Of a stretch of DNA of 31,536 nucleotides, positions 1-24,902 are shown piece after piece; the first letter of the stretch is position 1, and every line of letters begins with the position of its first letter. The DNA is from Fibrobacteria bacterium (GTDB taxonomy: Bacteria > Fibrobacterota > Fibrobacteria > UBA11236), in assembly GCA_041746255.1 (NCBI GenBank), contig JBGTHM010000108.1, positions 1 to 31,536 on the forward strand, given 5' to 3'. A program made the position numbers and the translations under genes. The notes below the pieces were generated by a model. The model made no database searches, was not told the DNA's origin, and was given only the letters and a program-made list of their open reading frames with translations.

Positions 1-937
1 CGGGCACGTCGACCTTGAAATCAACTATTGCGGAACCGCCCGCCGGAACCAAAGTAGTCTGTACATTCCTTTGATTCGGGATGGTACCGCCTTCCGTATA
101 GACCACGTCGAAAATCTCGCCAATTACGTGGAATGACGAAACCAGATTAGGGCCGCCGTTGCCGACGAAGAGGCGCAGGGTTTCACCGACCTGGGCTTTA
201 ACGGCATTATCGCCGGCCATGGCCCCGACCGCTCCGTTGAAAACCACATAATCCGCATCTTCCCTTACGGCTTTTTCCATGGAAAAGGCCTGCAGGCCAG
301 GCGCCCCATATTTTCCTTCGGTATAAAAATCGCTTTGCATGACATAGAATTCACGGTCAACTTTGGGAAGCCCGCCTTTGGGTTCCACAAAAATGAGACC
401 ATACATACCATTGGCGACATGCATGCCTACAGGCGCGGTGGCGCAATGATAAACATAAAGACCGGGGTTAAGCGCTTTGAAGGAAAAGACGGAAGTATGG
501 CCCGGCGCCGTAAAGGAGGCGGCCGCTCCTCCGCCAGGCCCCGTCACCGCATGTAAATCGATGTTATGCGGTACCTTGGAATCGGGGTGATTATGTAAAT
601 GGAATTCCACTTCGTCTCCTTCACGGATACGTATGAATTTTCCCGGAACGCTGCCGCCGAAGGTCCAGAATACATAGCGGGTTCCATCAACAATGGTTTT
701 TTCGACTTCGGTGACTTCCAGATGCACTACCATCTTGGTGGCATGCGTACGGGTAATGGGCGGTGGCACATTGGGAGCGTCGGTCAGAATCGCCACTTCC
801 TCTCCGACAATCCGGTCATCGGCGGGCGCCTGGGATTTCTTCTCGCCATTGTTGCAGGCCGATAGGGTTCCCGCCAGAGCAAAGGCAAGCCCCAGAGTGA
901 AAATTCGAAATGGAAGGGAAGTTTTAGGAAAAGACAT
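1..937 (-). CDS. nirK: Copper-containing nitrite reductase (AniA/clade II-type, lipoprotein), 3' end truncated by window edge
   Basis: Manual minus-strand translation from ATG at 937 (AAGGAG RBS upstream): [28 protein letters not shown] (lipobox LSAC)...[19 protein letters not shown]...[15 protein letters not shown]...[20 protein letters not shown]...[18 protein letters not shown]...QTTLVPAGG. The T1/T2 Cu ligand motifs and the SSFHVIG catalytic His motif are diagnostic. Not in the ORF track because the stop lies outside the window. Confidence 0.97.
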
Positions 938-1009
938 GATTATACTCCTTGAGTTTAATTCGCATTGCGAGACTCGATTTCCAATCTCAACACACATACC
1001 GTATACCAA

Positions 1010-1025
1010 AGCAAAAATCCGGCCA
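1010..1025 (-). promoter_or_regulatory. Sigma-54 (-24/-12) promoter for nirK
   Basis: Minus strand reads TGGCCGGATTTTTGCT: GG-N10-GC with TTGC at -12, about 70 bp upstream of the nirK start. Confidence 0.7.
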
Positions 1026-1055
1026 CACTTTAAAAGATAACCGAACATCTGATCC

Positions 1056-1075
1056 AAAAGACAAATATGTCCATT
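1056..1075. promoter_or_regulatory. Operator-like box, copy 1 (GAY-N6-RTCCATT)
   Basis: AAAAGACAAATATGTCCATT aligns with the copies at 1263-1282 and 6671-6690. Confidence 0.55.
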
Positions 1076-1144
1076 AAGAGGCGATTCAAGCCATCGAACT
1101 CCGTTGAATCCCCGAATGCGCTTTATATCAGCCTTTGGCATCCT

Positions 1145-1169
1145 GAATGGCCCAATTTTCTGGCCATTC
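1145..1169. promoter_or_regulatory. Perfect 8-bp inverted repeat, candidate upstream activator site for a sigma-54 enhancer-binding protein
   Basis: GAATGGCC-N9-GGCCATTC lies about midway (~130-145 bp) between the two divergent -24 elements. Confidence 0.45.
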
Positions 1170-1262
1170 TGTCAATTATAAGCTCAAAAACCCGGCATTT
1201 TGGCAAACGATAAATAGCCTCGTTCGCGGTTTTTCATCTTATTATCACAGACATGGAAAGTA

Positions 1263-1282
1263 TATGGATTAATATATCCATT
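1263..1282. promoter_or_regulatory. Operator-like box, copy 2 (palindromic ATGGAT-N6-ATCCAT)
   Basis: TATGGATTAATATATCCATT has perfect 6-bp arms and sits about 20 bp upstream of the -24 element at 1303. Confidence 0.6.
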
Positions 1283-1301
1283 GATGTCACCCGCGCGTTT
1301 C

Positions 1302-1317
1302 CGGCATACCGATTGCT
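1302..1317 (+). promoter_or_regulatory. Sigma-54 (-24/-12) promoter for the bd-like oxidase cluster
   Basis: CGGCATACCGATTGCT closely matches YGGCAYR-N4-TTGCW, ~55 bp upstream of ATG 1371. Confidence 0.75.
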
Positions 1318-1370
1318 CGGAAAGCATGGAATAACTCTACCCTCTTCAAGCCAGGACAGGATCGCTTGAT

Positions 1371-3443
1371 ATGCTAGACAAAGGAATTATCGGATTGACG
1401 GGCCTTATGTTTCTGGCTTTAGGGTTGCTGACGCCCTCTCCGGCAACGGCGGAAACCCAAATCCATCCGCTCATCGAAAAGAGCAATTGCCTGGCCTGCC
1501 ATCAGATAAGTGGCAAAGCGATAGGTCCGAACTTTTCCGAAATAGCTTTAAAGTACGGCAAACAAGATTCCCGGAAATTACTGGAAAAAATCCGGGACGG
1601 AGGCAGTGGAACTTGGGGAGCCATCCCCATGCCCCCCCATCCGCAACTTTCCGAATCCGACCTGCAAGCGATGGTCGAATGGATTCTGGCTTTAGGCGAG
1701 AAATCAGCCCCGGCGGTCGCCAAATCCCCCAGGCTGGGAACCAAACCCGGGGAAATGATTGAATACCGGCAATTTCCCATCATTGGAAGCCGGGTGGCGA
1801 TTTGGATCCTGGCCCAGTTGCATCTCATGTTTGCCGCCTTCGTACTCGCCGTCCCCATGTTTGCCTTGATAATCGAATATATCGGCTACCGCACCGGCGA
1901 AAAGCGTTATGACCAACTCGCCCATGAATTCACCAAACTGCTTTCGACTTCCTTTTCCTTTACGGCCGCATTGGGAACCCTGCTCACCTTCATGCTTTAC
2001 TTTCTCTATCCGAAATTGATGACGTATCTGACTTCCATTTTCGGTTGGACTTTCCTGCCCTACGTTCTCCTGTTTTTCGGGGAGGCGGTTTTCCTCTATT
2101 CCTACTACTACGGCTGGGGAAAGTTCAGTCCCCGAATCCACCTCGCTTTGGGAGTAGGCCTCAACCTTACCGGTATCGGAATCCTTTTCATCGCCGACGG
2201 ATGGCTGACCTTCATGAATACTCCCGGCGGGGTGACTGAGACGGGTGAGCTGCTCTCGACCTGGGATGCCGTCAACAATTACACCTGGATGCCCATCAAC
2301 ATCCATCGCCTGATCGCCAACGTGGCTTTCGGCGGCTCCATTGCGGCCGCTTACGGGGCGTATAAATTTCTGGGAGCCAAAACCGACGAAGAGAAGGCCC
2401 ATTACGATTGGATGGGTTATATGGGCAACTTCATCGCAATCGCAGCCCTGCTCCCCCTCTCCTTTGCGGGGTATTGGCTGGGTAAGGAAATCTACGCCTA
2501 CTCCCAGAACATGGGCATGACCTTAATGGGGGGCGCCTTTTCCTGGCTATTCATCATCCAAGGGGTACTCATCGGAGTTCTCTTTCTCGCCGCCAACTAT
2601 TACCTGTGGCTTGGCATGGGCCGCATACAGGGGGCTGAACGATTCCGCGGTTTCATTAAATGGTTGCTGGCCGTGATTACCATTTGCTTTATCGTATGGG
2701 CCACACCGCATTCCCTGATCGCCACCGTGCAGGAGGCGAGAGCCATGGGAGGCTCCCACCATCCCTCGCTGCGGGTTCTTGGAGTGATGTCGGCCAAGAA
2801 CACGGCCGTGAACATTCTCATTCTCACCACTTTCGTCAGCTTCCTGCTCTACCGCAGGGGAAACAAACAGGCTACGGTATCCTGGGCAAGATACGGCAAC
2901 TATGCCCAGTTCGGAATTTTCGCGGGGGTCTCCCTCTTCGTGATTTTTCTGGGAGTTTACGGCTATTTCGTGGAAGCGGCCGTGCGCATCAAGCTCTCCA
3001 TCCCGCAAGTGTTATCGGTACTTTTCGCCATGGTATCCGTTACGATATTGGACATAGCGTTGTTTCACAAGGCGAAGATAACCGGTGAAATCAAATGGGG
3101 AAGCATGCCCAGGAGAGCGCAATACGCCCTGTTTCTCATCGCCATCACTTTCACCTGGATCATGGGGCTCATGGGATACGTGCGCTCGGGAATCCGTCAG
3201 CATTGGCATGTACATGGCATCATGCGCGACACATCGCCCGAGGCCTATACGCCCACCTTGGGATTCGCCGCCAATGTGGTTTCCATCACCGTAATGATGT
3301 TTTTCGCCTTGATTTCCATCGTCTTTTGGCTGGCCAGCCTTACCGGCCGGAAAAATTGGAGCCCGCCTCCCATAAGCGGAATGGCTCCGCCGCCCGGAAT
3401 TTCCTTGCAAGCCATGCCGAGCGATAAGGAGGCTGCGCATTGA
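1371..3443 (+). CDS. Cytochrome c551/c552-like domain fused to a cytochrome bd-like (CydA-like) integral membrane oxidoreductase subunit
   Basis: Signal peptide, then a class I cyt c (CLACH...GPNF..IA.KY...GGSGTWGAIPMPPH), then many TM helices. CydA-equivalent motifs: QLHLMFAAFVLAVP (His19-like), FFGEAVFLYSYYYGW, IHRLIANVAFGG (His186-like), and RSGIRQHW in place of xExGRQPW. No recognisable Q-loop. Confidence 0.85.
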   Translation: MLDKGIIGLTGLMFLALGLLTPSPATAETQIHPLIEKSNCLACHQISGKAIGPNFSEIALKYGKQDSRKLLEKIRDGGSGTWGAIPMPPHPQLSESDLQAMVEWILALGEKSAPAVAKSPRLGTKPGEMIEYRQFPIIGSRVAIWILAQLHLMFAAFVLAVPMFALIIEYIGYRTGEKRYDQLAHEFTKLLSTSFSFTAALGTLLTFMLYFLYPKLMTYLTSIFGWTFLPYVLLFFGEAVFLYSYYYGWGKFSPRIHLALGVGLNLTGIGILFIADGWLTFMNTPGGVTETGELLSTWDAVNNYTWMPINIHRLIANVAFGGSIAAAYGAYKFLGAKTDEEKAHYDWMGYMGNFIAIAALLPLSFAGYWLGKEIYAYSQNMGMTLMGGAFSWLFIIQGVLIGVLFLAANYYLWLGMGRIQGAERFRGFIKWLLAVITICFIVWATPHSLIATVQEARAMGGSHHPSLRVLGVMSAKNTAVNILILTTFVSFLLYRRGNKQATVSWARYGNYAQFGIFAGVSLFVIFLGVYGYFVEAAVRIKLSIPQVLSVLFAMVSVTILDIALFHKAKITGEIKWGSMPRRAQYALFLIAITFTWIMGLMGYVRSGIRQHWHVHGIMRDTSPEAYTPTLGFAANVVSITVMMFFALISIVFWLASLTGRKNWSPPPISGMAPPPGISLQAMPSDKEAAH

Positions 3444-4264
3444 AAAACTTCATGAACATCCTCTTATTCACCTTGTTGGTTACCGCTTTCTATACCTATG
3501 TGGGCCATATGGTACCCCAACAGGAATTCCATCCTCCCCAGGAATTGGAAATACGTCCCGATATGTCCACCGCCGAATTGGTGGAAGTCGGACGCGAGCT
3601 TGCCGCCGGAAAAGGAACTTGCATGGCCTGCCATACCCTCGGCAAAGGCGAGGGCGGGCGTTTTCCCGATCTGGAAAACATAGGAGTGAAAGCCGAGAGC
3701 CGGCGCCCGGACATGAGCTCCCTGGATTATCTGGCGGAATCGCTATACGAACCCGAAGCCTTCATCGTAGAAGGCTTCAACCCGGGCATGCCCGCCGTGC
3801 ATAAAGCCCCAATCAGTTTATCCGATGCCGAAATCATCGCCATTATCGCCTGGATGCAAACGCTGGGAGGAGAGGCAACCGTCGGCCTTTCCGCTACCCA
3901 TAAATACTCCGGGGCGTCAGCTCAATCAGAATCGCCGGTTGCCACCAAAGTTGCAGGAGAAAAATTTCTTGGGGTAGCCGCCGTCGATGGTCCTGGGGTT
4001 TACCAGAAATACGGATGCTCATCCTGTCATAGTATGTCCTCATCCGAAAGCCTGCTGGGTCCCTCTTTGGCGAATATCGGCAACCGTCTCACAACACCCG
4101 AACTCTATCGGGCCCTGCTGGAACCCGATGCCGTGGTAGCGGAGGGATACGCGCCGGGAGTAATGGCGGCCTCCTTGGCAGCCTCGGGATTTTATGAAAA
4201 AGCAACCGCCGGCGAATTACGCGTATTGGTGGAGTTCCTTTCAACCCGGAAAGGTGCACAATGA
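3440..4264 (+). CDS. Membrane-anchored diheme cytochrome c
   Basis: TTG start overlaps the upstream TGA, with an AAGGAGG RBS. N-terminal TM, CMACH and CSSCH motifs, and repeated YLAESLYEP/LYRALLEPDA..GY motifs typical of class I cyt c domains. Confidence 0.9.
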   Translation: MKNFMNILLFTLLVTAFYTYVGHMVPQQEFHPPQELEIRPDMSTAELVEVGRELAAGKGTCMACHTLGKGEGGRFPDLENIGVKAESRRPDMSSLDYLAESLYEPEAFIVEGFNPGMPAVHKAPISLSDAEIIAIIAWMQTLGGEATVGLSATHKYSGASAQSESPVATKVAGEKFLGVAAVDGPGVYQKYGCSSCHSMSSSESLLGPSLANIGNRLTTPELYRALLEPDAVVAEGYAPGVMAASLAASGFYEKATAGELRVLVEFLSTRKGAQ

Positions 4265-5073
4265 ATATCTGGGTTTTATCCGGCGTCATGGTCTTCTTGA
4301 TGGGACTGAGATTTTTCCGTCCGAACATACTCGCCTGGTTGACGGCGATATGGATTTCCTGCTTCATTTTTCTCCGCTATGGAATAGAACCGCCCGCCCC
4401 GGCCTCCATCGTCAAATTTTTCATGGCCATCATCACCGGGTCTTTGGCCCTATATGCAACGGCCGATGCCGGGCGAATGGACGAAGCCCTATCGTTACTC
4501 AAGAAATGGACCACCGAGCCGCGATATCGACGCCTATTGGCAATCGGAATCTTGGTGATTCCAGTTTTTCTGGGTTACGGCGCCTACAGACAAGCATCGC
4601 TCGGAGTCCAACCTCCTTCCTCCGGAAGAACCGTCCATCCGGCTCCTCCCGACGAAATCACTTTCAAGGGGAAGCGCATTGATCTGATAACCGGAGACAA
4701 CCCTTACCGAAAATTGGAGACCACCGATAAGGAAGCGTTCGCGAGCCACCTCGAAAATGGCCGGAAAATCTATTATCAAAACTGTGTCTTTTGTCATGGA
4801 GACAATATGGAGGCCGAAGGAAACTTCGCCCATGGGTTTGATCCGCTTCCGGCGAACTTTCTCCAGGCCACCACCATCGCCATGTTGGAAGAAAGCTACC
4901 TGTTCTGGCGTATCGCCAAAGGAGGCCCCGGGCTACCGGAAGCGGGAACGCCTTGGTTAAGCAGCATGCCGGCCTGGGAGGATCGGCTCAGCGAAGAGGA
5001 TATCTGGGATGTCATTATGTTCCTTTACGAATTCACAGGACATCGGCCCCGTGCCAAGGAGAATGTGAGATGA
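4261..5073 (+). CDS. Membrane protein (about 4 TM) with C-terminal monoheme cytochrome c
   Basis: ATGA overlap, hydrophobic N-half, CVFCH, and WRIAKGGPGLP..SMPAW with a distal Met. Confidence 0.88.
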   Translation: MNIWVLSGVMVFLMGLRFFRPNILAWLTAIWISCFIFLRYGIEPPAPASIVKFFMAIITGSLALYATADAGRMDEALSLLKKWTTEPRYRRLLAIGILVIPVFLGYGAYRQASLGVQPPSSGRTVHPAPPDEITFKGKRIDLITGDNPYRKLETTDKEAFASHLENGRKIYYQNCVFCHGDNMEAEGNFAHGFDPLPANFLQATTIAMLEESYLFWRIAKGGPGLPEAGTPWLSSMPAWEDRLSEEDIWDVIMFLYEFTGHRPRAKENVR

Positions 5074-6650
5074 GCCTGACGCAACGAATTGCAGTGAAAG
5101 GCCGTTGGCGTGGAAACATGATTTTGTCGCTATCCCTTTTAATCGTCATGAAACTATCCGTGGAAAACGCGGGCGCTGCCGATGCGAAACAACTTGAGAG
5201 AGGAAAGGCAATCTACGACGCGAAGTGCAGCCAATGCCACGGTTACGCAGGCGACGCCAAAGCGGTGGGTGCTGAATACAATCACCCCTTACCCCGCGAT
5301 TTCACTTACGGAGTCTATAAGATTCGCACCACCGAAAGCGGCGAACTTCCCACCGACCGGGATTTACGCAATATCATCCGCAAGGGAATGCCCTATACCG
5401 GAATGCCGCCATGGCCACGCTTGACCGATCAGAATCTCGACGACGTGGTGCAATACATCAAAACCTTCGCCGATGATTTTTCCGATTCGGTGATGACTCC
5501 CATCGAAATCGTCATTCCCAAGGCTCCCAAATATTCGGAGGAATCCGCCCGGAAAGGCCTGGAAATTTTTCGCGAAAACAAGTGCATGGATTGTCATGGC
5601 GAATTCGGACGAGGCGACGGAGAGTCCGCCCCCACTTTAACGGACGATTGGAATCAATTCATCCATCCCGCTAATTTGACCAAACCCTGGACCTTCAGGG
5701 GGGGCGCCGAGCGCGAAGACATTTACCGAACCATCGTAACCGGCCTGAATGGAACGCCTATGCCTTCCTTCGCCACCATCGAAGAGGAGGATCGCTGGCA
5801 TCTGGTGAATTATATCCATTCGCTCTCTCCGAACAAAAAGGCTCCCTATACCAACCTGGTACTCGGAGAATTTTCGGACGAGCCTTTGGACTTGGAGCGC
5901 GGGGACGAGCTTTTTAAGAATGCGACGCCATCCCTCTTTCCCGTGGTTGGTCAAGTCATTGAAGATCCCCGCAGTTTTCAACCGGCCGCAAATGCCATTT
6001 CGGTGCAGGCCGTTTACGACAGCACGCATGTCGCCATTCGTCTGTCATGGCACGATATGAGTGCGCAGCGAAAGGGTAGCAATACCCCGGTCACCCAAAC
6101 GGTTCGGAATGATTCGAGCGAACCGAGCGCGGTAATATCCAAAAACCCGTCCCAGGAGGTCTATTCCGATGCCGTAGCCTTGCAAATACCCCACAAGTCG
6201 CCCAGTGGCCGGGCATTGCCCTACTTCCTCTTCGGCGACGGAAAAAACCCCGTCGATATCTGGTTCGCTGACCTCGGAAAAGACTCTCCGCAAGGCTTCA
6301 TCGGCAAGGGAGCGTCCAACCTTACCGCAGCCGAATCAGACCTCCATATGCGAAGCGATTACCGTGACGGGGAATGGTCCGTCATTTTTAAAAGTCCGCG
6401 CCATCCCGAAAAAGGCATGCCTTTCCATCCGGAAGAATTCATCCCCATTGCGTTTTCTATTTGGGACGGATTTTCAGAGGAAACCGGCAATAAGCGAGGC
6501 ATCACTTCCTGGTACAACCTGTACTTGAAATCACCCGTGCAAACCTCCCCTTTCCTTCCGGCGGCGCGAAAGGCAGGCCTAGCCATGGGATTGCAAATCG
6601 TATTGCTTTTCGCGTTACGCCACCATTATCGACGCAAGGGTAACTTGTAA
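5070..6650 (+). CDS. Diheme cytochrome c with ethylbenzene dehydrogenase gamma-like (EB_dh/DOMON-like) domain and C-terminal TM anchor
   Basis: True start is probably ATG 5070 (ATGA overlap, AAGGAG RBS), not 4953. CSQCH and CMDCH. EB_dh-like motifs: VQAVYD..HVAIRLSWHD, SDAVALQIP, VDIWF, YRDGEWSVIFK, IAFSIWDG..ETGNKR. Confidence 0.85.
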   Translation: MSLTQRIAVKGRWRGNMILSLSLLIVMKLSVENAGAADAKQLERGKAIYDAKCSQCHGYAGDAKAVGAEYNHPLPRDFTYGVYKIRTTESGELPTDRDLRNIIRKGMPYTGMPPWPRLTDQNLDDVVQYIKTFADDFSDSVMTPIEIVIPKAPKYSEESARKGLEIFRENKCMDCHGEFGRGDGESAPTLTDDWNQFIHPANLTKPWTFRGGAEREDIYRTIVTGLNGTPMPSFATIEEEDRWHLVNYIHSLSPNKKAPYTNLVLGEFSDEPLDLERGDELFKNATPSLFPVVGQVIEDPRSFQPAANAISVQAVYDSTHVAIRLSWHDMSAQRKGSNTPVTQTVRNDSSEPSAVISKNPSQEVYSDAVALQIPHKSPSGRALPYFLFGDGKNPVDIWFADLGKDSPQGFIGKGASNLTAAESDLHMRSDYRDGEWSVIFKSPRHPEKGMPFHPEEFIPIAFSIWDGFSEETGNKRGITSWYNLYLKSPVQTSPFLPAARKAGLAMGLQIVLLFALRHHYRRKGNL

Positions 6651-6653
6651 ATT

Positions 6654-6669
6654 CGGCAAGGGAATTGCA
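6654..6669 (+). promoter_or_regulatory. Internal sigma-54 (-24/-12) promoter for the downstream half of the cluster
   Basis: CGGCAAGGGAATTGCA: GG-N10-GC with TTGCA, just after the 6650 stop in the only large intergenic gap of the cluster. Confidence 0.65.
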
Positions 6670-6670
6670 T

Positions 6671-6690
6671 AACAGACAATTTTATCCATT
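6671..6690. promoter_or_regulatory. Operator-like box, copy 3, overlapping the predicted transcription start
   Basis: AACAGACAATTTTATCCATT aligns with the boxes at 1056 and 1263. Confidence 0.55.
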
Positions 6691-6820
6691 TATATGCCAA
6701 GGGAGTGCCGGATGACCGCCCAAAAGACCCTCAAAACACCTTTTAGCCGCTGGCATGGGCTTTGATATGGAAAAGGAGGATGCCTTGCCGAAATCGAAGC
6801 ATGAAAAAGGAATACTTTAC

Positions 6821-7729
6821 ATGAAAACGGCGCTATTGGGAATTTTACTTTTTGCCACGGGAACGTTCGCCGGTTCGGAACTTTTACCTTCTTCCGTGAG
6901 GGGCGAAGGGGTATACCAAAGAGCCTGTGCGGCATGCCATGGCGACAACGGAGACGGCCAAGGCCCGGCGGCGAAATTCCTCGATCCCCTTCCACGCGAC
7001 TTTATTGCCGGTCAGTATAAATTCCGCTCCACACCCAGCGGAGAATTGCCGACGGATGCGGATCTGATCCGTATCGTGGAAGACGGTATTCCCCGTACCC
7101 AAATGCCCGGCTGGAAGCGGCTGCTCACACCCCAAGAAATTCATGACGTGGTGGCCTATCTCAAAACCTTCAACGCGGATTTCCAGGAATTCGGAGCCCC
7201 CGAGGCCATCACGGTTCCCACTCCCCCAGCGGCTTCTCCCGCCCTCATCGAAGAAGGCCGCATGGTTTACATGGTCATGGAATGCTGGGCCTGCCATGGT
7301 GGAAGCGGAAAAGGGAACGGCGCTTCCGCCAAGGGCCTTAAGGACGATGCGGGAAATAAAATCCTTCCCTGGAACTTGACGAATTTCCGCTACAAGGCGG
7401 GTAACGATCCCCATACACTTTACCGCACTATTTCCACCGGATTGAACGGAACCCCCATGCCTTCCTTCACGGGCGTATTTCTCTTCGAAGGAGGTCAATT
7501 CGACGCAGCCAAGTATTCCGAGGCCTATGGAGAAGAGGATATTCAATTACTGCGAGCGTATTTCCGTGCCCAACCCTCGTTGACCGCGCTGGAATCCATG
7601 ACCGATGAAGATCGAAAGCACCTGGAAGAAAAACGGAAATGGGCCCTGGTCCATTACGTCGGCTCTTTGCCCAAGAAGCCGAATCTGTTTCACCGGCTAT
7701 TCTGGGCGGACACGGAAGTGACCAAATGA
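6821..7729 (+). CDS. Periplasmic diheme cytochrome c (paralog of the diheme domain of 5070-6650)
   Basis: Probable start MKTALLGILL at 6821 (signal peptide). CAACH and CWACH. Shares PLPRDF..G.YK.R.T.SGELPTD.DL and TGLNGTPMPSF with the upstream protein. Confidence 0.9.
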   Translation: MKTALLGILLFATGTFAGSELLPSSVRGEGVYQRACAACHGDNGDGQGPAAKFLDPLPRDFIAGQYKFRSTPSGELPTDADLIRIVEDGIPRTQMPGWKRLLTPQEIHDVVAYLKTFNADFQEFGAPEAITVPTPPAASPALIEEGRMVYMVMECWACHGGSGKGNGASAKGLKDDAGNKILPWNLTNFRYKAGNDPHTLYRTISTGLNGTPMPSFTGVFLFEGGQFDAAKYSEAYGEEDIQLLRAYFRAQPSLTALESMTDEDRKHLEEKRKWALVHYVGSLPKKPNLFHRLFWADTEVTK

Positions 7730-7752
7730 CCCCTGGAAAGGAGATGAGAGTT

Positions 7753-8277
7753 ATGCAGTCATGGCTATTCCTTCTATCGCTAGGACTTGTCGGCTTGTTG
7801 CTGGCGGCATGCGTAGAACCTGTGGGGAGCGGAACCGGACTAACCGAAAGCGGGAGGCTCGCGGCAGCTCCCACTCCAATCGATACGGCAAACCCCGATC
7901 CGGTCGATCCCGGACCCGTGGATACCAATGCGCTCGCCGCAAACTTTTTCGCCAACCAGGTTCTGCCGATATTCCAGGAGAATTGCACCCAATGCCATTC
8001 GCCGGGATCACAGGGCTATAACTACACCAAATTGACCCTGGAACTCGATAAGGCTTATGCCGCCCTGGTGAACGTTCCTTCCACCGAAATGAAGGCGCCC
8101 CGGCCGGAAATGTTGTTGGTAAAACCCGGAATGCCCGACAGCAGCTTTCTCTACAATAAAATCGCGTTCGACAAACCGCTGGCCTTCGCCCGCATGCCTC
8201 TGCAGAAACCAAAACTTTCCGCTACCGATATCGATATCATAAAGAAATGGATCGAGGGTGGATCCCCGGAAAATTGA
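7753..8277 (+). CDS. Monoheme cytochrome c lipoprotein (planctomycete-cytochrome-c-like domain)
   Basis: AAGGAG RBS 9 nt before ATG 7753 (alternative start 7726). Lipobox LAAC and Pro-rich linker, then F..QVLPIFQENCTQCH...LVKPG.PDSS.L..KI...MP...LS..DI..I.KWI..G. Confidence 0.82.
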   Translation: MQSWLFLLSLGLVGLLLAACVEPVGSGTGLTESGRLAAAPTPIDTANPDPVDPGPVDTNALAANFFANQVLPIFQENCTQCHSPGSQGYNYTKLTLELDKAYAALVNVPSTEMKAPRPEMLLVKPGMPDSSFLYNKIAFDKPLAFARMPLQKPKLSATDIDIIKKWIEGGSPEN

Positions 8278-8298
8278 AGTGAAGAAGGAGTTATTGTG

Positions 8299-9384
8299 AT
8301 GCGCATGTATAAATCCACCATCAGCCTGACTTTCGGGATAATTGGAGCCTGCTTGTTCGCGGCAGCGCCGAGGATATACGCCGAGCCTTATATCGCCGTC
8401 CGTTCGGGAATGAAGTGCAGCGTATGCCACGTCAACAAATCCGGCGGGGGAATGCGCACCGATTACGGGTCCGTATACTCCCAATACCAATTGCTCCTGG
8501 CCACGGCGGGAGGGAAAAAGTTGCCGTTTTCCTTCGATCCCAAATTGAACAAATCCATAACCGTAGGCGCCAATTGGCGCGTGGAACAGGTACGCATATC
8601 CCAATACACCAACGACAGCGGGAAGGTATTTCCCTCTGCCGATGAATCCACCATCCGCGAAGGAAACCTGTACCTCAACCTGGAATTGGTCAAAAATTTC
8701 CTTTCCCTTTATATCGACCAGACCATGGCTCCATCTTCGACTAATCGCGAATTTTTCGCCACCGTCGAAGGACCCCATAACACCTTCTTCAAATTCGGAC
8801 GCATGCTGCTTCCTTATGGATTGAGACTGATGGATGACGAAGCATTCATCCGCAATACAACCAACTACACCTACAATCGACATGATTTGGGATATGAAGT
8901 AGGATGGGAGCCCGGCCCCGTTTCGGCCATCGTCAACGTCACCAATACCCAACTCTCGTCGGTGGGTTCGGTAAACTTCCGCCGGGTACGGGTTGGCGGA
9001 TCCTACGGCTCGGCCATCCAGAAGCTGGAGCGGGATAAAAAGAACACCTACGGGATATTCGGGGGAGCCAATGCCGGAATGTTCACCTTTTTGCTGGAGC
9101 GGAACTGGACTAAAAACGTCGATATTAAAAGCGTATCGACGCTGGCGGAAGTAAATGTATTACCGATACGCGGCCTCAACTTCAAGACCACCTATGAATA
9201 CCTGCATCCCGATACCATGATACCCCGGGATCAGAACGGGCAGCAGCGCTATACCTTCGGAGCGGAGCCGTTTTTGACCCAGTGGTTTCAAATCGGATTG
9301 TACTACCGTAAAAACGACTGGATTCCCCAAAACGGTCCCAAGAACCAGGATCAAATCATCGGCAGGCTGCACACTTTCTTTTAG
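8299..9384 (+). CDS. Monoheme cytochrome c-outer membrane beta-barrel (porin) fusion, Cyc2-like architecture
   Basis: Signal peptide, then AEPYIAVRSGMKCSVCH directly after the cleavage site, then alternating beta-strand-like segments (FKFGRMLLPYG, LGYEVGW, YTFGAEPF) ending in an aromatic beta-signal (RLHTFF). Confidence 0.75.
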   Translation: MRMYKSTISLTFGIIGACLFAAAPRIYAEPYIAVRSGMKCSVCHVNKSGGGMRTDYGSVYSQYQLLLATAGGKKLPFSFDPKLNKSITVGANWRVEQVRISQYTNDSGKVFPSADESTIREGNLYLNLELVKNFLSLYIDQTMAPSSTNREFFATVEGPHNTFFKFGRMLLPYGLRLMDDEAFIRNTTNYTYNRHDLGYEVGWEPGPVSAIVNVTNTQLSSVGSVNFRRVRVGGSYGSAIQKLERDKKNTYGIFGGANAGMFTFLLERNWTKNVDIKSVSTLAEVNVLPIRGLNFKTTYEYLHPDTMIPRDQNGQQRYTFGAEPFLTQWFQIGLYYRKNDWIPQNGPKNQDQIIGRLHTFF

Positions 9385-9429
9385 CCTATCGCCAAAAAGT
9401 CCATCATAAACATCACCGGAGGAAATACC

Positions 9430-10122
9430 ATGACATGCATACGAAAAACCAGCTTACTGCTCCTCGCCGGAGCCTGCGCCCTATGGGCGGGAGGCAGCAT
9501 CACCGGAACCGTCAAGGTGAAAGGCGACATCCCCAAGGATGAAACCCGCATCGTCACCAAGAATGCCGAGCAATGCGGAGCCAAAATGAACGCGCAAAAG
9601 TATGTCATTTCCGCTTCCGGCGGCGTGAAATGGGCGGTCGCCATGCTGGAAGAAGCCCCCAAAGGTGGAAAGGCTTGGGGCCAAGTCGACCTGGTCTACA
9701 ACAACAAAGAGTGCCGATTCGAGCCGCATGTTCTCATTGCGCCCACCGGAGGTACCTTGAAGGTTTCCAATAGCGACGACATGTTGCATAACGCCAATTT
9801 TTCCCAGGTCGAGGGAGACAAGAAAAAGGGAATCGTCAATCTCGCCCTGCCGCGCAAGGGATTGGTGCTTGAGAACAATCGGATACTTCGGAGGGCCGGA
9901 CTTATTTCCGTCGAATGCGACGCGCATGACTTCATGCAGGGCTGGATCTGGTCGCTTCCCCATCCTTACGCTTCGGTCACCGACAGCAACGGCGGTTTCA
10001 AAATCGATGACGTGCCGCCCGGATCGTATAAATTGAAAGTCTGGCACGAAGGACTGGGTGAAAAAATCGTAGAGGTCAAAGTCGAGGACGGCCAGGACTC
10101 CAAGGTAAACGTCGAGCTTTGA
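9430..10122 (+). CDS. Secreted cupredoxin-like / carboxypeptidase-regulatory-like domain protein
   Basis: GGAGG RBS and signal peptide. Motifs GSITGTV, CRFEPHV, NSDDMLHN, CDAHDFM (His...Cys-x2-His-x2-Met, type-1-Cu-like) and FKIDDVPPGSYKLKVWHE. Confidence 0.75.
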   Translation: MTCIRKTSLLLLAGACALWAGGSITGTVKVKGDIPKDETRIVTKNAEQCGAKMNAQKYVISASGGVKWAVAMLEEAPKGGKAWGQVDLVYNNKECRFEPHVLIAPTGGTLKVSNSDDMLHNANFSQVEGDKKKGIVNLALPRKGLVLENNRILRRAGLISVECDAHDFMQGWIWSLPHPYASVTDSNGGFKIDDVPPGSYKLKVWHEGLGEKIVEVKVEDGQDSKVNVEL

Positions 10123-10155
10123 AACCCGTACGGATTGGTCGCAAAGGGAATGACG

Positions 10156-11421
10156 ATGCTTACGCCGCAAGAGAAATTCACCCCCTATCTTGTGGCCGTC
10201 AACCTCACCGCCAGCTGCAATCTGGCGTGCGCGCATTGCTATATGGACGCGGACCAGCGTGGCAAACCCGCTTCCGACGAACTGGATAACGCGGAACTGG
10301 CGGGGCTTTTCCAGGAAATCGCCGAACGGGCGCCCGGCACCATTATCGTGCTCACCGGCGGCGAACCCTTGCTCCGCCCCGATCTTCCACTCATCGTCGC
10401 ATCCGGGGCGAAGGCGGGATTGCGCATGGTATTGGGAACCAATGGTTTATTGCTTACGCCCGAAAAGATTTCGCTTTTAAAAACCGCCGGACTTCAGGGA
10501 GTGGGCGTAAGCCTGGACGCCGTGGAGCCATCCGCCCATGATGAATTCCGCGGAGTACCCGGCGCATTCGCGCGGGCGCGCCAAGGAATCAAAAATTGCC
10601 GCGCACAGGACTTGCATGTGCAAATCCATTTCACCTTGACCCGCAAACAATTGGGACGCGAACAGGACGTGGTCAGCATGGCCAGGGAACTTGGAGCATC
10701 CATCGTCAATTTCTTTTTCCTGGTATGCGTCGGACGCGGTCAATCCGCAATGGACCTCACCCCGGAGGAATACGAAAACGCCCTGATCCGTATCGCGCGC
10801 TTGCAAAGGGATTCCCGCGAGATTCTGGTGCAGTCGCGTTGCACCCCGCATTTCAAGCGCATTCTTTACGAAACCGATCCGCAATCCGAATTCACCCGTG
10901 CCACCGGCTATGATGGCGGAGGCTGCCCAGCCGCAACCCATTATTGCCGCATCACCCCCAAAGGCGATATGACCCCCTGCCCTTACCTCGAGCTATCGGG
11001 AGGCAATATAAAGGAAAAAGGGTTCTGGAAAATCTGGGACGAGGCCAGGCTGTTCCAATCTTTTCGCGATCCATCCCTGTTGCAAGGGCGGTGCGGAAGT
11101 TGCGAGTACAAATTGATATGCGGAGGGTGCCGCGCCCGATCGCTGGCCGAAACCGGCAATTTGATGGGAGAGGATCCGAGTTGTTCCTACCAGCCGGTCG
11201 GAGGCGAAACGATTCCTGCGCGCTTGGAAAACGGACCGGAGCAAGTGGTTTGGACGCAAGCGGCGCGGGAGCGCCTGATAAAGGTTCCCCTTTTCTTGCG
11301 ACCCATGATCCGGAAAAAACTGGAAGAAAGAGCGCTACGCGAAGGCGTGGAAGTCACCCCGGAATTGATGCAGAAACACCGCTCCGAAAGACAAGCCCAA
11401 TTGGGCATGCGTTTCGGATAG
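10156..11421 (+). CDS. Radical SAM/SPASM protein, NirJ/AhbC/AhbD-like, with C-terminal PCP_red domain
   Basis: CNLACAHCY (CxxxCxxC), GGEPLLRPD, CTPHFKRI, SPASM cysteines GCPAA..YCRI...PCPY...CGSCEYKLICGGCRAR...DPSC, and C-terminal WTQAARERLIKVPLFLRPMIRKKLE. Start chosen from RBS spacing. Confidence 0.88.
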   Translation: MLTPQEKFTPYLVAVNLTASCNLACAHCYMDADQRGKPASDELDNAELAGLFQEIAERAPGTIIVLTGGEPLLRPDLPLIVASGAKAGLRMVLGTNGLLLTPEKISLLKTAGLQGVGVSLDAVEPSAHDEFRGVPGAFARARQGIKNCRAQDLHVQIHFTLTRKQLGREQDVVSMARELGASIVNFFFLVCVGRGQSAMDLTPEEYENALIRIARLQRDSREILVQSRCTPHFKRILYETDPQSEFTRATGYDGGGCPAATHYCRITPKGDMTPCPYLELSGGNIKEKGFWKIWDEARLFQSFRDPSLLQGRCGSCEYKLICGGCRARSLAETGNLMGEDPSCSYQPVGGETIPARLENGPEQVVWTQAARERLIKVPLFLRPMIRKKLEERALREGVEVTPELMQKHRSERQAQLGMRFG

Positions 11422-11440
11422 CAACGTCAGGAGAAGATCC

Positions 11441-14400
11441 ATGCAAATCGCCACCGCCGAAAAAATACCGCCTCTACCCGCGAACGTCATTGTAGGCGAG
11501 AATTCCGTGGACGTGAATTTGACTTCCGGTCTCAAGCGCCTGCCGCTGATTCCCTTGCCCGATCGCATGGTGGATTGGATGGAAGAGGGCCGCCGGTCGA
11601 TGTACGACAAGCTCCAAAACAAAGGCAAGCCGGCGTTCTTCTCCTCGCATCTGCCCGTCATGGTAACGTGGTCGGGAGACAAGGACATTCCTTTCAATTG
11701 CTCGAACAAGGGCGTCGGGCTCATCCCCAAGGAAAAATACCTGAAGCATTATATCCAGGTTTTCCGTTCGGTGCTGGAAAAAACCAAAGGCCGCCCTTGG
11801 CAAGAATCCATGGCGGAAAGAATCAAAGCGGTGTCGAGTTTTTATTTCAAACGCGAAGCCATCGATCTGCGCGCCTTGACCACTTTGGAAATTTTCCAGA
11901 AAACCACCTACCGAAATCTCATGTCCAATCCCATCGCGTCCTTGCATTACACGGGCAATGCACCCGATTACATGAGCTTTCAGGTCAATTGCGCGGTAGA
12001 GATAATCGGACCCGATGACCCCCGCCACACCTTTATCAAATTGGCCCGGGTGATGTTCGAATACGACAGTTTCCATATCGCCCAACCGGAATTTCCGCAC
12101 GCCTACATACTTTGGATCACCGAAGTGGGAGACAAGACTCCCTTTCGCGTAGAACAAAAGCCGGAGAACGTCGTCCATGTGAAGGGACGCGGCGATTTGG
12201 AATGGGACCCCGAAGCCATGCAATCGGTAAACCGCGCCCCCGGAATGATCCGGCAATTCATCACCGAGTCCATCGAAAAATACGCCCTTTCGCGCGGCTT
12301 CACGCGCATCGACGCCAAAGTGGTGCGCGAAGCCCGGGAAGTGATGGAACGCAATACGACTGCCGACGGCGAGGATAAACCCGCGTCCCAGCCCGAACAG
12401 CCCGTCGATTTGACCCGGTATCAGAGCATTTACGTGGGGCTCGATTCTTCGGAGCTTTCCACCGCCGCCACCGAATTGGCCGTGCGCATGGGAAAGACCT
12501 ACGGGTCCACCCTGCACGGTAGCCACGTATACGCCGCCAAAATGCATGACAACCGATTCCGTGCCATGGAAGGAGGCCTGCCTGCTGAATATCAACAAGA
12601 GAAGGAGCTGGAAAAACAACGTAAAATCCATGACAGCCTCATCACCAAAGGTTTGGAGCTCATCACCGACTCCTATCTCGAGGTCATGGCGCGCGAATGC
12701 GCGAAACATCAGGTAACCTATACCCCGGTTTCACTCGAAGGGAAGAATTGGCAGGCTCTCTCCAAAGATATCGCTTCGCACGCTCACGACCTCATAGTCT
12801 TCGGCGGTTTCGGCATCGGCCGTGTCAGCCGATCCCTGCTCGGCTCGGTGACGGAGAGAACCCTGCGACGTGTGCGGCGCGATTTCCTTATTTGCAAGCG
12901 CACGGAGATGGAGAATCAATCGGATACCATCGTGGTCTGCCTCGACGGCAGCGAGAGAAGTTGGGGCGGGTTGCAACGAGCCTTCAGCCTGGCCGAAAAA
13001 TTCGATAAACGTATCGTAGCGGTTTCCGCCTTCGATCCCTATTTCCATTATGCCATGTTCAAGAGCCTCAATACGGCGCTGACGGACAAGGCCCGCAAGG
13101 TTTTCAAATTCGAGGAGCAGGAAAAGCTCCACGAAGACATCATCGATTCGGGATTGGCGAAAATCTATCAGTCCTATTTGAATATCGCGGAAAGACTAGC
13201 CGAAAAAGCCGGGGTTTCCATCGATACCAAATTGCTGGACGGCAAACCCTTTGAAAAAATCCTGCAATATTGCGAAGAAAATCCGCCCTGGCTCGTGGTA
13301 CTCGGACGCATCGGCTTCCACAGCGAAGAAGACATGGATTTGGGCAGCAATACGGAAAACCTGTGCCGCATGTCCCCCTTCAATTTGCTGATAGTGGAAA
13401 GTAAAAGCAAACCCCCGGTGGAATTCCAGGCCGAAGAGACGGTGAGTTGGACGGTGGAAGCCAAGGAGCGCATGCATAAGGTTCCCGATATGGCGCGCCC
13501 CATGGCAATGAAGGCCATCCAAGGATATTGCATTGCCGAAGGCCATACCGTCATCACCGAATCCATTCTTTTCGAAGCGTTGCGATCCATCATGCCTCCC
13601 GAGGCGCTGGCCCGCATGGGAATCGATCTCGAAGCCAAACGCGAAGCCGAAGCGGAGGTTGTCGATCGAATCGAACTGTCTTTCCGCTGTCCCGTATGCG
13701 GATTCCATCATCAAGGTTCCCGGCCCGTCTCCTGCCCCGTATGCGGCCGTGAAGGAGCGGTGTTCCAACTGCTGGAAAAATCGGAAGTGAAGGACGGCGA
13801 AGCCCAAAACACGCTGGGCAACCGCAAACTGATATGGGAACGCGAAGCCTTGGAAAAGATCGAGGCGATACCCGATCCGGTTTGGCGCGAACAATTACGC
13901 AACCGGGTAGAGAAACGGGCCTTGACTGACAAAGCCGCCGGCGTCACGGTGGAAATGGTTCAAGCCGCGCAGGAAGTCCAATCCTTCGCCGCGCCGGTTT
14001 CGAGTGGCGGACACCAGAACCCCACCCTGCCGACAAACGTTCCATCCTCGGCCGCGGCGAAGCCGCTTTGGACCGAAGCCGGATTGGAACGTCTCGAACG
14101 CATACCCGAGGGCTTTATGCGGCATGCGGCCAAGACCACGGTGGAAAAATTCGCGGTTGAAAAAGGCCATCTGCAAATCAGCCTGGAAGTGGCGGAAGCC
14201 GGACTGGGAAAGGCCCGGGAAATGATGCGGGATGCCATGGCCGGCCGTATCGCACATCCAGGGGCCGAAGTACCGGAAGCCACAGGAACGGTAGCTTGGG
14301 AATGCCATGTATGCGGATTCACTGCCGATGGAAGCAAACCGAGTGAATGTGGCAATTGCGCCACCGGTCATTTCATGCCGGTGACTTCGGAGAAACACGC

Positions 14401-14788
14401 GAAGCTGCCACTCTCGGTCTTCCAAAAACTGGATTGGGATACTGATTCGCTACAACGTCTGGAACGGGTCCCCGAAGGTTTCATGCGCGACATGACCCGC
14501 TGGCGCGTTGAGAAGTGGACGCGCGCGGACGGTCGGAATAAAGTGGATTTCGCCGCTATGGCCGATAAATTCGAAAATTGGGCCGAAGGCAGCGCAAAAC
14601 ACAAGACGACGCTGCCTTGGAGCCAGGAAGCCGAAGCCAGGGCGAACCGTATCCCCGGTTTCATTCGAGCGATAGTAATGAAAGAAGTGGAGAAAAGGGC
14701 TCAATTTCTGGGAAAAACCACAATCGATGAAAGTGGTTTCGACGAGGCCGTAAAGCATTGGTCCGCTACCGGATCCTTTCACGGTTAA
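11441..14788 (+). CDS. Multidomain protein: split-barrel (PNPOx-like) N-domain, 2 universal stress protein domains, 2 rubredoxin-like Cys4 domains, 6 PCP_red repeats
   Basis: USP motifs IYVGLDSSE..S...LLGSVTERTLR and IVVCLDGSERS...LGSNTENL. Cys4 motifs CPVCG..CPVCG and CHVCG..CGNC. Six W..EA..R...(V/I)P..(F/M)R-type repeats. N-domain contains TTLEIF..TTYRNL..NP.ASL.YT....SFQVNC.VEI. Confidence 0.85.
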   Translation: MQIATAEKIPPLPANVIVGENSVDVNLTSGLKRLPLIPLPDRMVDWMEEGRRSMYDKLQNKGKPAFFSSHLPVMVTWSGDKDIPFNCSNKGVGLIPKEKYLKHYIQVFRSVLEKTKGRPWQESMAERIKAVSSFYFKREAIDLRALTTLEIFQKTTYRNLMSNPIASLHYTGNAPDYMSFQVNCAVEIIGPDDPRHTFIKLARVMFEYDSFHIAQPEFPHAYILWITEVGDKTPFRVEQKPENVVHVKGRGDLEWDPEAMQSVNRAPGMIRQFITESIEKYALSRGFTRIDAKVVREAREVMERNTTADGEDKPASQPEQPVDLTRYQSIYVGLDSSELSTAATELAVRMGKTYGSTLHGSHVYAAKMHDNRFRAMEGGLPAEYQQEKELEKQRKIHDSLITKGLELITDSYLEVMARECAKHQVTYTPVSLEGKNWQALSKDIASHAHDLIVFGGFGIGRVSRSLLGSVTERTLRRVRRDFLICKRTEMENQSDTIVVCLDGSERSWGGLQRAFSLAEKFDKRIVAVSAFDPYFHYAMFKSLNTALTDKARKVFKFEEQEKLHEDIIDSGLAKIYQSYLNIAERLAEKAGVSIDTKLLDGKPFEKILQYCEENPPWLVVLGRIGFHSEEDMDLGSNTENLCRMSPFNLLIVESKSKPPVEFQAEETVSWTVEAKERMHKVPDMARPMAMKAIQGYCIAEGHTVITESILFEALRSIMPPEALARMGIDLEAKREAEAEVVDRIELSFRCPVCGFHHQGSRPVSCPVCGREGAVFQLLEKSEVKDGEAQNTLGNRKLIWEREALEKIEAIPDPVWREQLRNRVEKRALTDKAAGVTVEMVQAAQEVQSFAAPVSSGGHQNPTLPTNVPSSAAAKPLWTEAGLERLERIPEGFMRHAAKTTVEKFAVEKGHLQISLEVAEAGLGKAREMMRDAMAGRIAHPGAEVPEATGTVAWECHVCGFTADGSKPSECGNCATGHFMPVTSEKHAKLPLSVFQKLDWDTDSLQRLERVPEGFMRDMTRWRVEKWTRADGRNKVDFAAMADKFENWAEGSAKHKTTLPWSQEAEARANRIPGFIRAIVMKEVEKRAQFLGKTTIDESGFDEAVKHWSATGSFHG

Positions 14789-19253: not shown

Positions 19254-19258
19254 GAACC

Positions 19259-24078: not shown

Positions 24079-24092
24079 CGACTTATATCAAT

Positions 24093-24791: not shown

Positions 24792-24839
24792 CCTCTTTCA
24801 CCGCCTAATTTCGCCATTTTACCCAATTTTCTCAAAAAA

Positions 24840-24868
24840 TTGACACACCCCAGCGGGGTTGATATTTT
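24840..24868 (+). promoter_or_regulatory. Sigma-70-type promoter of parE-parC
   Basis: TTGACA-N17-TATTTT with a TGn extension. Confidence 0.6.
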
Positions 24869-24884
24869 CCTTCGAGGCCAAATA

Positions 24885-24902
24885 ACTGTTCATATGAGCA
24901 GT
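24885..24902. promoter_or_regulatory. Near-perfect palindrome, candidate LexA/SOS box
   Basis: ACTGTTCATATGAGCAGT (one mismatched pair), just downstream of the predicted -10. Confidence 0.5.

Follow-up and report, generated by a model that had tools for sequence, protein, structure and literature searches.

What respiratory chemistry does the ten-gene cluster g1-g10 of a Fibrobacterota genome encode, and is it tied to the copper nitrite reductase gene (nirK) from which it diverges? The cluster lies on a stretch of 31,536 nucleotides (the window) from Fibrobacteria bacterium, which is the entire contig C108 (JBGTHM010000108.1) of assembly GCA_041746255.1 (4.59 Mb, 130 contigs, completeness 100%; genome G000 below). 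An earlier note on this DNA had proposed an undescribed respiratory system coupled to NirK. Our preferred reading, to which we give a probability of about 0.55 when its parts are taken jointly, is that the ten genes form a composite respiratory operon of three modules: A (g1-g4), built around a relative of the cytochrome bd subunit CydA; B (g5-g7 with g8), which reaches the outer membrane; and C (g9-g10), which is cytoplasmic. What we observe of these modules is their gene order, domain content, folds, conservation and distribution. The genes concerned are as follows.

1..937, minus strand: nirK, first ~312 codons, lipoprotein-type copper nitrite reductase
938..1370, no strand: divergent intergenic region between nirK and g1
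1371..3443, plus strand: g1, signal peptide, c551/c552-type cytochrome c domain and CydA-like membrane domain of OR-N type
3440..4264, plus strand: g2, membrane-anchored dihaem cytochrome c
4261..5073, plus strand: g3, about four transmembrane helices and a monohaem cytochrome c domain
5070..6650, plus strand: g4, dihaem cytochrome c, EB_dh-type (NxrC-like) haem b domain and C-terminal membrane anchor
6821..7729, plus strand: g5, periplasmic cytochrome c with two haems, paralogous to the dihaem part of g4
7744..8277, plus strand: g6, lipoprotein monohaem cytochrome c
8296..9384, plus strand: g7, monohaem cytochrome fused to a 16-strand outer-membrane porin (from a structure model)
9430..10122, plus strand: g8, secreted protein with type-1-copper-like ligands and a CarboxypepD_reg-like C-terminal domain
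10150..11421, plus strand: g9, radical SAM/SPASM protein of the AhbD/NirJ group with a C-terminal PCP_red domain
11441..14788, plus strand: g10, 1115-aa cytoplasmic fusion of an N-domain, six PCP_red domains, two USP domains and two rubredoxin-like knuckles

A recount confirmed the layout that the earlier note had described. The nirK gene, on the minus strand, is divergent from ten plus-strand genes that cover 1371-14788, and the first four of these overlap by 4 bases at each junction (TTGA at 3440-3443 for g1/g2; ATGA at 4261-4264 for g2/g3 and at 5070-5073 for g3/g4). The widest gap within g1-g10, ~170 bp, separates g4 from g5. Ten CxxCH motifs are spread over seven proteins (two each in g2, g4 and g5; one each in g1, g3, g6 and g7), six of which are matched by Pfam cytochrome c models, the exception being g7, which has no Pfam match. 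The description of the cluster as a multi-compartment respiratory set around a CydA relative without a Q-loop, in Fibrobacterota, was likewise borne out.

The assignment of module A turns on g1, whose membrane domain matches PF01654 at 91.4 bits over profile positions 2-243 of 418 only. This match halts, and the PDB alignments end, ahead of the Q-loop, which g1 lacks. A structure model (predicted local distance difference test score (pLDDT) 76, predicted template-modelling score (pTM) 0.78) has 13 long helices and one short one, and CydA chains fill the first ten places among its PDB fold matches (E 6e-8 to 9e-6). In a HMMER alignment to solved CydA chains, H151 takes the place of E. coli H19 and E238 that of E107, and H312 falls on the histidine of transmembrane helix 5, which we take to be the haem b558 ligand. 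Among 66 homologues extracted from the loci surveyed below, E238 and H312 are invariant (66/66 each), and 62 keep His at H151, the other 4 having Lys; E238, Y231, H257, H312, H464 and H613 belong to a set of 159 positions conserved in at least 97% of the sequences. Ahead of the membrane domain lies a c551/c552-type cytochrome c domain (PF00034; PDB 2d0s at 4.8e-23), a fusion that recurs in Fibrobacterota database homologues and in 2 of the 66 extracted sequences.

The proteins encoded next to g1 resemble electron carriers of anammox bacteria. PF00034 matches g2 twice, and residues 43-265 align with PDB 7zs0 (Kustd1711) at 6.2e-30; g4 matches PF13442, PF00034 and PF09459, and its dihaem part aligns with PDB 6h5l_B at 3.6e-44, as does its paralogue g5 at 4.3e-48. 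Kustd1711, encoded in the anammox nxr cluster, is a dihaem cytochrome whose hemes lie at ~+350 mV, and that cluster is reported to include blue copper proteins too (PMC11791136); entry 6h5l is named Kuenenia HAO in bioRxiv 10.64898/2026.07.28.741245. Unlike the nxr clusters, the present one has no NXR genes, and its carriers are membrane-anchored and stand beside a CydA-like protein. In three Methylomirabilota-type loci (L057, L058 and L062), the homologues of g3 and g4 are fused in one open reading frame (ORF) of ~730-790 aa.

On sequence grounds, g1-g4 is a 'bd-like' module of OR-N type. OR-N proteins are described as having no quinol site, ~14 helices and cytochrome c partners (bioRxiv 10.1101/2021.01.16.426971), and in Nitrospira and Nitrospina they are known as the 'bd-like oxidase'; TO_1 of Ca. 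Manganitrophus, for which a 'periplasmic cytochrome b' is described (PMC9040806), is another member. Module A shares with this family the four-helix CydA core with its haem ligands, the lack of a Q-loop and of CydB, the number of helices (~14) and the cytochrome c genes in the operon, and the haem b domain of g4 parallels the periplasmic haem b protein of TO_1. Nitrospinaceae homologues, to which g1 is 33% identical, have been placed in OR-N1/N2 (PMC10839748). Membership of g1 in the OR-C group was considered and rejected: OR-C proteins have 8 helices and a C-terminal haem c domain (bioRxiv 10.1101/2021.01.16.426971), whereas the haem c domain of g1 is N-terminal, so that neither the helix number nor the haem c position fits. 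The locus differs from other OR-N systems in its single CydA-like subunit, with no N1/N2 pair in the 78 loci surveyed, in the N-terminal c551 fusion and in the outer-membrane trio g5-g6-g7 within the operon. The core g1-g4 is thus not undescribed, as had been proposed; it is already known from comparative genomics as the OR-N or 'bd-like' cluster of Murali et al. 2021, which occurs in many phyla.

The breadth of this distribution is evident in the present searches. Among 8,000 candidates scored, 7,182 are relatives of g1 at E≤0.001, many of them 70-77% identical across phyla, and one of the database relatives is named from Rhodocaloribacter litoris. We surveyed 78 loci, one genome per species; to judge by record titles, they represent Rhodothermales, Acidobacteriota, Myxococcota/'Deltaproteobacteria', Opitutales, Methylomirabilota/Rokubacteria, Anaerolineae, Binatia, Krumholzibacteria and others. 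Two Nitrospinaceae loci without g2-g4 homologues were excluded from the neighbourhood counts. Homologues of g2, g3 and g4 follow g1 in that order in 59 of the 60 loci with at least 3.5 kb downstream, which span about ten phyla, and in the 47 loci with at least 9 kb downstream we found a g10-like gene in 39, a g9-like gene in 28 and a g8-like gene in 14. Neither a second CydA-like gene nor CydB occurs in any of the 78 loci.

The flanks of these loci, which were searched with the oxidases of the window's genome and the proteins of contig C105 (described below), hold an A-family (aa3-type) oxidase in 26 of 78, SenC/SCO1 in 17 and CtaB in 7. By comparison, NnrS, NirV and RIC were each found in 1 of 78, in every case locus L006, and nirK stands beside g1 in 1 of the 61 loci with at least 3 kb upstream; this locus is again L006, from the same genus as the window. 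These counts argue that the wide association of the cluster is with genes of aerobic respiration and not with N-oxide genes, and the neighbourhood survey that the earlier note had called for as a check on its nirK coupling therefore gives no support to that coupling.

Module B begins with g5, which matches PF00034 twice and moves together with g6 and g7. The g6 protein has a lipobox (LLAAC), one CxxCH and weak PF13442 matches, and its gene always directly precedes g7 homologues. The g7 model is a 16-strand barrel (pLDDT 80.9) with the porins OprP (2o4v) and OprO (4rjw) as its top PDB matches. These are also the templates reported for the outer-membrane cytochrome Cyc2, which according to Keffer et al. 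2021 (PMC8406198) carries a signal peptide and only one CxxCH, at the N-terminus, and is defined by the motifs AxPxFAR[Q/K][T/Y] upstream and PxL downstream of CxxCH. Like Cyc2, g7 has a signal peptide with CxxCH right after it, a 16-strand porin and small periplasmic cytochromes alongside; unlike Cyc2, it lacks both motifs, and at 362 aa it falls under the 365-aa Cyc2 screen. A profile search gave 1,469 cluster representatives of the g7 family at E≤0.001. Of the best 150, 134 have an N-terminal CxxCH, and among these [A/S/G]EP stands upstream of the motif in 124 and GGG downstream in 124; the signature is AEPYxAxRxGxK-CxxCH-xNxTGGGxR. We conclude that g7 has a Cyc2-like design, does not pass the Cyc2 motif test and belongs to a separate family.

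The genome holds three further g7-type haem-porins, at C97:91613-93129, C20:11309-13366 and C86:26467-27402, each near or cut by a contig end; counting g7, the organism thus has four. Genes for g6-like small cytochromes lie just upstream of the C97 and C20 copies, the C20 copy follows a trihaem lipoprotein, and the start of the C86 copy is cut.

The gene for g8 closes the module. All 28 homologues compared keep H120, C163, H166 and M169, which make up a type-1 copper ligand set, and the C-terminal domain matches PF13620. Because g8 is also found with the OR-N clusters of Rokubacteria-, Myxococcota-, Opitutales- and Anaerolineae-type loci, it goes with the core no less than with the trio.

The order g1-g4, g5-g6-g7(-g8), g9-g10 recurs in genomes G152, G142, G199, G130, G173 and G166, with g8 not found in G130, and insertion of the trio in the operon occurs only in the window's Fibrobacterota family. 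A Rhodothermales metagenome-assembled genome (locus L033) has g8-g7-g6-g5 divergently oriented next to g1-g4, which is a second, independent linkage of the trio to OR-N. The trio also occurs alone, amid housekeeping genes, in G036, G040, G098, G044, G034, G188 and G136.

Module C consists of g9 and g10, whose homologues, together with those of g8, go with OR-N clusters across phyla. The NirJ/Ahb-like radical SAM gene recognized earlier is g9, which has CxxxCxxC and SPASM motifs and aligns from end to end with TIGR04545 (AhbD, 296.0 bits) and TIGR04055 (NirJ2, 277.8 bits). Both scores lie below the cut-off of 500 bits, and the sequence places g9 in the wider AhbD/NirJ group only, not as an equivalog. 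It differs from AhbD and NirJ further in its extra PCP_red domain, its bd-like neighbour and the lack of AhbA/B in the genome. Although g9 is the sole AhbD-like gene of the genome, it is not the housekeeping haem b synthase, because the genome has a ferrochelatase and no AhbA/B-type domain. The N-domain of g10 has no Pfam match, and an Atlas score of 0.90 to PNPOx-like proteins is a lead only; the parts of g10 are separate genes in other phyla, including Rhodothermales. Downstream of the OR-N genes of one Rhodothermales locus (L008:14896-21599), PCP_red lies on four separate proteins, namely a radical SAM enzyme, a USP protein, a small protein and a g10-matching region, and a NUBPL/Mrp-type P-loop ATPase is encoded among them.

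In BchB, the PCP_red domain sits beside the tetrapyrrole. From this and from the AhbD/NirJ relationship of g9, we infer that g9 and g10 probably modify or insert a haem; the PCP_red domain may be a shared docking module.

The arrangement of the ten genes recalls the rus operon of Acidithiobacillus ferrooxidans, which comprises cyc2, cyc1, cox genes and rusticyanin. In both, an outer-membrane cytochrome, a periplasmic dihaem cytochrome, a blue copper protein (here the putative one, g8) and a terminal oxidase are encoded in one operon. The present operon differs in that its enzyme is bd-like and not aa3-type, its porin and copper proteins belong to other families, and its host is a member of the Fibrobacterota from a neutral-to-unknown setting.

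Substrate, direction of electron flow, complex formation and cofactor role we infer as follows. Electrons would enter at the outer membrane through the g7 haem, probably from an extracellular donor such as Fe(II), and module B would serve as an inward wire, passing them to the lipoprotein cytochrome g6 and on to periplasmic g5, the copper protein g8 or both. From there they would reach the anchored cytochromes g2, g3 and g4 and the c551 domain of g1, which in the proposed arrangement is attached to the periplasmic end of helix 1, the helix that bears H151, and finally the haem centre of g1. Module A would thus be a cytochrome-c-dependent bd-like terminal reductase, composed of a CydA-like haem protein without the quinol loop and three carriers (dihaem cytochrome c g2; four-helix monohaem cytochrome c g3; g4 with two haems c and a haem b), and would most likely reduce O2, with NO as a possible substrate. 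The protons consumed would be drawn from the cytoplasm, and turnover would therefore generate membrane potential. Module C would probably make or insert a modified haem for module A.

The inward direction is suggested by the high-potential proteins to which g2 is related, the copper ligands in g8, the lack of a quinol site and the oxidase neighbourhoods of OR-N clusters elsewhere. Porin-cytochrome systems can operate in both directions, and g6 and g7 are at the cell surface, as extracellular electron transfer to metal oxides or humics would need, with g1-g4 as its inner-membrane entry point. We consider this outward arrangement highly improbable: g1 has no quinol site, its neighbours in other phyla are aerobic oxidases, and the relationship of g2 to a +350 mV cytochrome and the type-1 copper ligands of g8 would suit high-potential acceptors.

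The same features bear on whether g1-g4 reduces a terminal acceptor at all. The module might instead be a relay from cytochrome c to quinone, or through cytochrome b, for reverse (uphill) electron flow, an idea in keeping with the suggestion that some TO complexes of Manganitrophus, as bd-like complexes, pass electrons to quinone (PMC9040806), and one that would give a task to two parts with no assigned role, the haem b domain in g4 and the four g3 helices. The operon has no quinone-site features and no NrfD or cytochrome b membrane subunit, and the haem-ligand residues of the oxygen-reducing core are conserved, which makes such a relay quite unlikely.

Several observations weigh against the three-module operon with a terminal reductase at its core. 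In g1, the first proton-channel glutamate of CydA is replaced by tyrosine (Y231) throughout the family. No OR-N member has been purified, O2 reduction by these proteins is published as a hypothesis only, and their composition and function await experimental confirmation (PMC10839748). The Cyc2 motifs that g7 lacks, PxFAR[Q/K][T/Y] and PxL, occur in 0 of the 134 family members compared. The periplasmic cupredoxin of the earlier note stands as to its ligands, H120/C163/H166/M169, and is putative as to its fold: g8 has no cupredoxin sequence match in Pfam (E up to 5) or PDB (E up to 10). What suggests a maturation role for g9 and g10 is family resemblance and co-location, and a regulatory role of the USP domains would be equally plausible. 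Finally, in G136, from the sister family f2, the trio and the OR-N cluster lie on different contigs, and module B does not need module A, because the genus labelled g2 (not to be confused with the gene) has the trio without OR-N.

We next consider the divergent gene, nirK, which leaves the window at base 1. Its longest ORF begins at 1141, and its likely start is 937, with AAGGAG ahead; from that start the protein has a lipoprotein signal of the AniA-like type, ending in LSAC. The part within the window alone scores 305.9 bits against TIGR02376 (cut-off 296.3) over profile positions 9-286 and is thereby an equivalog match. This match ends at profile position 286, at window base 2, and positions 286-323 are found on the same strand at the end of contig C105. 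The translations read through, with ...FKVDVP on C108 continued by PGTLILVDHS... on C105 and on into a Pfam cytochrome c domain; the remainder of nirK with this C-terminal domain (PF00034) is C105:33807-34331. Contig L006 carries the same genes in the same order in one piece (HemN-like, RIC, NnrS, SenC, NirV, nirK, g1), and a Logan contig from the probable source run reaches 14,255 bases upstream of window base 1. On these three grounds, namely the read-through, the gene order of L006 and the Logan extension, we take C105 to join C108. The AniA-type assignment proposed for NirK thus agrees with its signal and is incomplete as to its domains, the cytochrome c domain lying on C105.

Leading away from nirK, C105 encodes first a nirV-like protein of FGE-sulfatase type, SCO1/SenC and NnrS, and further on a RIC/ScdA-type hemerythrin, two radical SAM proteins (one HemN-like), a class II ribonucleotide reductase and a GAF histidine kinase. 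At C105:11798-20301 (locus L089), an Rrf2 regulator is followed by a seven-gene cluster that includes a very divergent haem-copper oxidase (HCO)-like protein of 500 aa (39.9-42.5 bits to PF00115), a CuA-type subunit II (PF00116), a 571-aa B-family-like haem-copper subunit I, SCO1, a cytochrome b/4Fe-4S/FlpD-like fusion and a UbiA-type prenyltransferase. The nearest PDB relatives of subunit I are ba3 oxidases (2.5e-46), and it lacks the cross-link tyrosine, because the HPIVY of Thermus ba3 aligns to HTSQQ. Loss of this tyrosine in B-family relatives with CuA subunits marks NO reductases of the eNOR, sNOR and nNOR types (PMC11214002). The C105 enzyme combines these traits: it is a B-family relative, has no cross-link tyrosine and is encoded with a CuA-type subunit II. 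We regard it, by its sequence, as a candidate NO reductase, ~17 kb from the end of nirK. Among the 31 genomes of the order, this subunit I occurs in G000 only (E≤1e-60); in G152, the partner HCO-like gene is represented by a fragment at the end of a contig.

Profile searches found no HCO, cydB or nor gene within the window, in line with the earlier note; the window being a whole contig, absence from it says little. The other oxidases of the genome are two of aa3-type and a fused cbb3 CcoNO. No CydB or second CydA was found in the genome, and a hidden canonical cydAB elsewhere in it was rejected on that basis. The genome-wide search for norB and nosZ that had been suggested thus yields the tyrosine-less enzyme on C105 as a candidate NO reductase and no NosZ over the cut-off; NarG and NapA likewise have no match in the genome over their cut-offs.

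To see how NirK and the cluster are distributed, we used a phylum sample of 201 genomes, in which relatives are not independent. Homologues of g7 occur in 17 of the 201 (13 of 21 in family f1, 3 of 4 in f2), the g1 core in 9 and NirK over the cut-off in 17. NirK is present in 8 of the 9 genomes with g1 versus 9 of the 17 f1/f2 genomes without it. These NirK counts, like the HCO counts below, include G194, which is flagged as unpublished; leaving it out gives 16 of 200 and 8 of 16 for NirK. Within the window's order, NirK is thus about as frequent without the cluster, and the coupling is not conserved. No more than 5 kb separates nirK from g1 in G000, in G152 of the same genus and in G173, and an NnrS gene is the divergent neighbour of g1 in G142; nirK and OR-N are 56 kb apart in G166 and 26 kb in G136, and on separate contigs in G130, G142 and G199.

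A PF00115 survey of the 31 order genomes found aa3-type and fused cbb3-type enzymes in most, and a third HCO class (~215 bits, 454-639-aa frames) in G136, G142, G130, G108, G205 and G201. The seven NirK-bearing genomes of genus g2 have two HCO matches each, of aa3 and cbb3 size, and no HCO that is tyrosine-less or of the size of NO reductase (NOR) was seen in this survey in G166, G173, G199 or G187. In two genomes of genus g2 (G034:C23 and G193:C31), nirK lies ~9 kb from a fused cbb3 oxidase gene on the same contig, and nirK thus tends to adjoin respiratory genes generally in the family. In G136 (L136, C12:376000-388000), the set directly before nirK begins with norR (621.6 bits, cut-off 476) and continues with genes for a dihaem cytochrome c, a 442-aa C-family-like HCO, an AAA ATPase and a 575-aa protein, an arrangement like norCBQD; NirK itself is here a classical protein of 367 aa that has no cytochrome domain, and a nirV-like gene completes the row.

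These results decide how much weight to give the idea that NirK finds its missing partner, an NO reductase, in the bd-like complex. The idea draws on the four genomes with nirK or nnrS within 5 kb of g1, on the 8 of 9 OR-N genomes with NirK, on the four genomes without a NOR-sized or tyrosine-less HCO and on the ability of canonical cytochrome bd to turn over NO (PMC11214002). The four adjacent cases are close kin and so are not independent; in the survey across phyla, nirK, NnrS, NirV and RIC are each found beside the cluster at the single locus L006; and NirK also occurs in order genomes without OR-N, with genus g2 making do with aa3- and cbb3-sized HCOs. Moreover, the window's genome has its own tyrosine-less B-type HCO with an Rrf2 regulator ~17 kb away, and G136 has norR and the norCBQD-like set by nirK. 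We therefore hold it very unlikely that g1-g4 is an alternative NOR. The claim that no nor gene accompanies nirK stands for the window and fails beyond it, and the two findings that the earlier note had named as speaking against its reading, no association of homologous clusters with nirK and a Nor outside the window, are largely what we observe.

A second way to link the neighbours is to have the operon feed the cytochrome c domain of NirK, with nitrite-dependent oxidation of Fe(II) or another external donor as the outcome and g1-g4 as a branch or relay. NirK does include a cytochrome c domain that could accept electrons, and its gene diverges from the cluster next to it; in Gallionellaceae, Fe(II) oxidation with nitrate reduction has been connected with eNOR-type enzymes (PMC11214002), and the window's genome holds nirK, the tyrosine-less HCO and four g7-type porins. 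Such a conduit is nonetheless unlikely, given that the adjacency is limited to one family, that the trio and nirK are unlinked in genus g2 and that neither a nitrate reductase nor NosZ was found in the genome over the cut-offs. As a partner of the bd-like complex, NirK is not supported by the data. We return to the three-module operon as the preferred reading, in which the nirK-nirV-senC-nnrS operon is a lineage-specific neighbour that may tap the same cytochrome c pool.

Other features of the window lie apart from this argument. The nirK-g1 intergenic region contains an inverted repeat, ATGGAT-N6-ATCCAT at 1264-1281, a putative regulator site. A scan for sigma-70 promoters and terminators gave 5 promoter-like sites against a shuffle mean of 11.9 and terminators at chance level, and it was not used. 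At 17790-20311 and 23077-28916, the window encodes two adjacent T2SSE-type secretion ATPases, HemB (ALAD) and a topoisomerase pair of the GyrB/ParE-GyrA/ParC type, which are ordinary genes with no evident link to the cluster.

In the literature searched, whose coverage was limited and did not include the supplements of the Murali preprint, we did not find the insertion of a Cyc2-like trio in such an operon, the g7 family with its own signature or the AhbD-like/PCP_red partner module, and among the titles and abstract openings listed by a search for work on nirK and cytochromes of Fibrobacterota none dealt with this cluster. PMC10654088 mentions neither Fibrobacter nor Bacteroidota. The published Cyc2 motif screen, as quoted, would not pass g7-type porins, and surveys of iron-oxidation potential that depend on it may therefore miss them.

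OR-N enzymes are widespread and are assumed to be terminal oxidases in nitrite and manganese oxidizers, and none has been characterized. For this family, the gene link between a bd-like enzyme and an outer-membrane haem-porin suggests an electron source, the conserved AhbD/NirJ-like radical SAM partner suggests an unusual haem, and the c551 domain built into the catalytic subunit speaks for cytochrome c as the donor. A bolder extension, which we find doubtful, is that a hot-spring lineage of the Fibrobacterota has a self-contained lithotrophic chain, in which a new family of Cyc2-like haem-porins would oxidize extracellular Fe(II), another metal or a mineral and deliver the electrons, by way of a lipoprotein cytochrome, a dihaem cytochrome and a blue copper protein, to a bd-like oxidase with a radical-SAM-modified haem, nitrite being used through NirK and the tyrosine-less HCO when O2 is scarce. 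If so, the operon would be the first case of a porin-cytochrome genetically hard-wired to a bd-like oxidase, and it would offer a handle on the function of OR-N enzymes.

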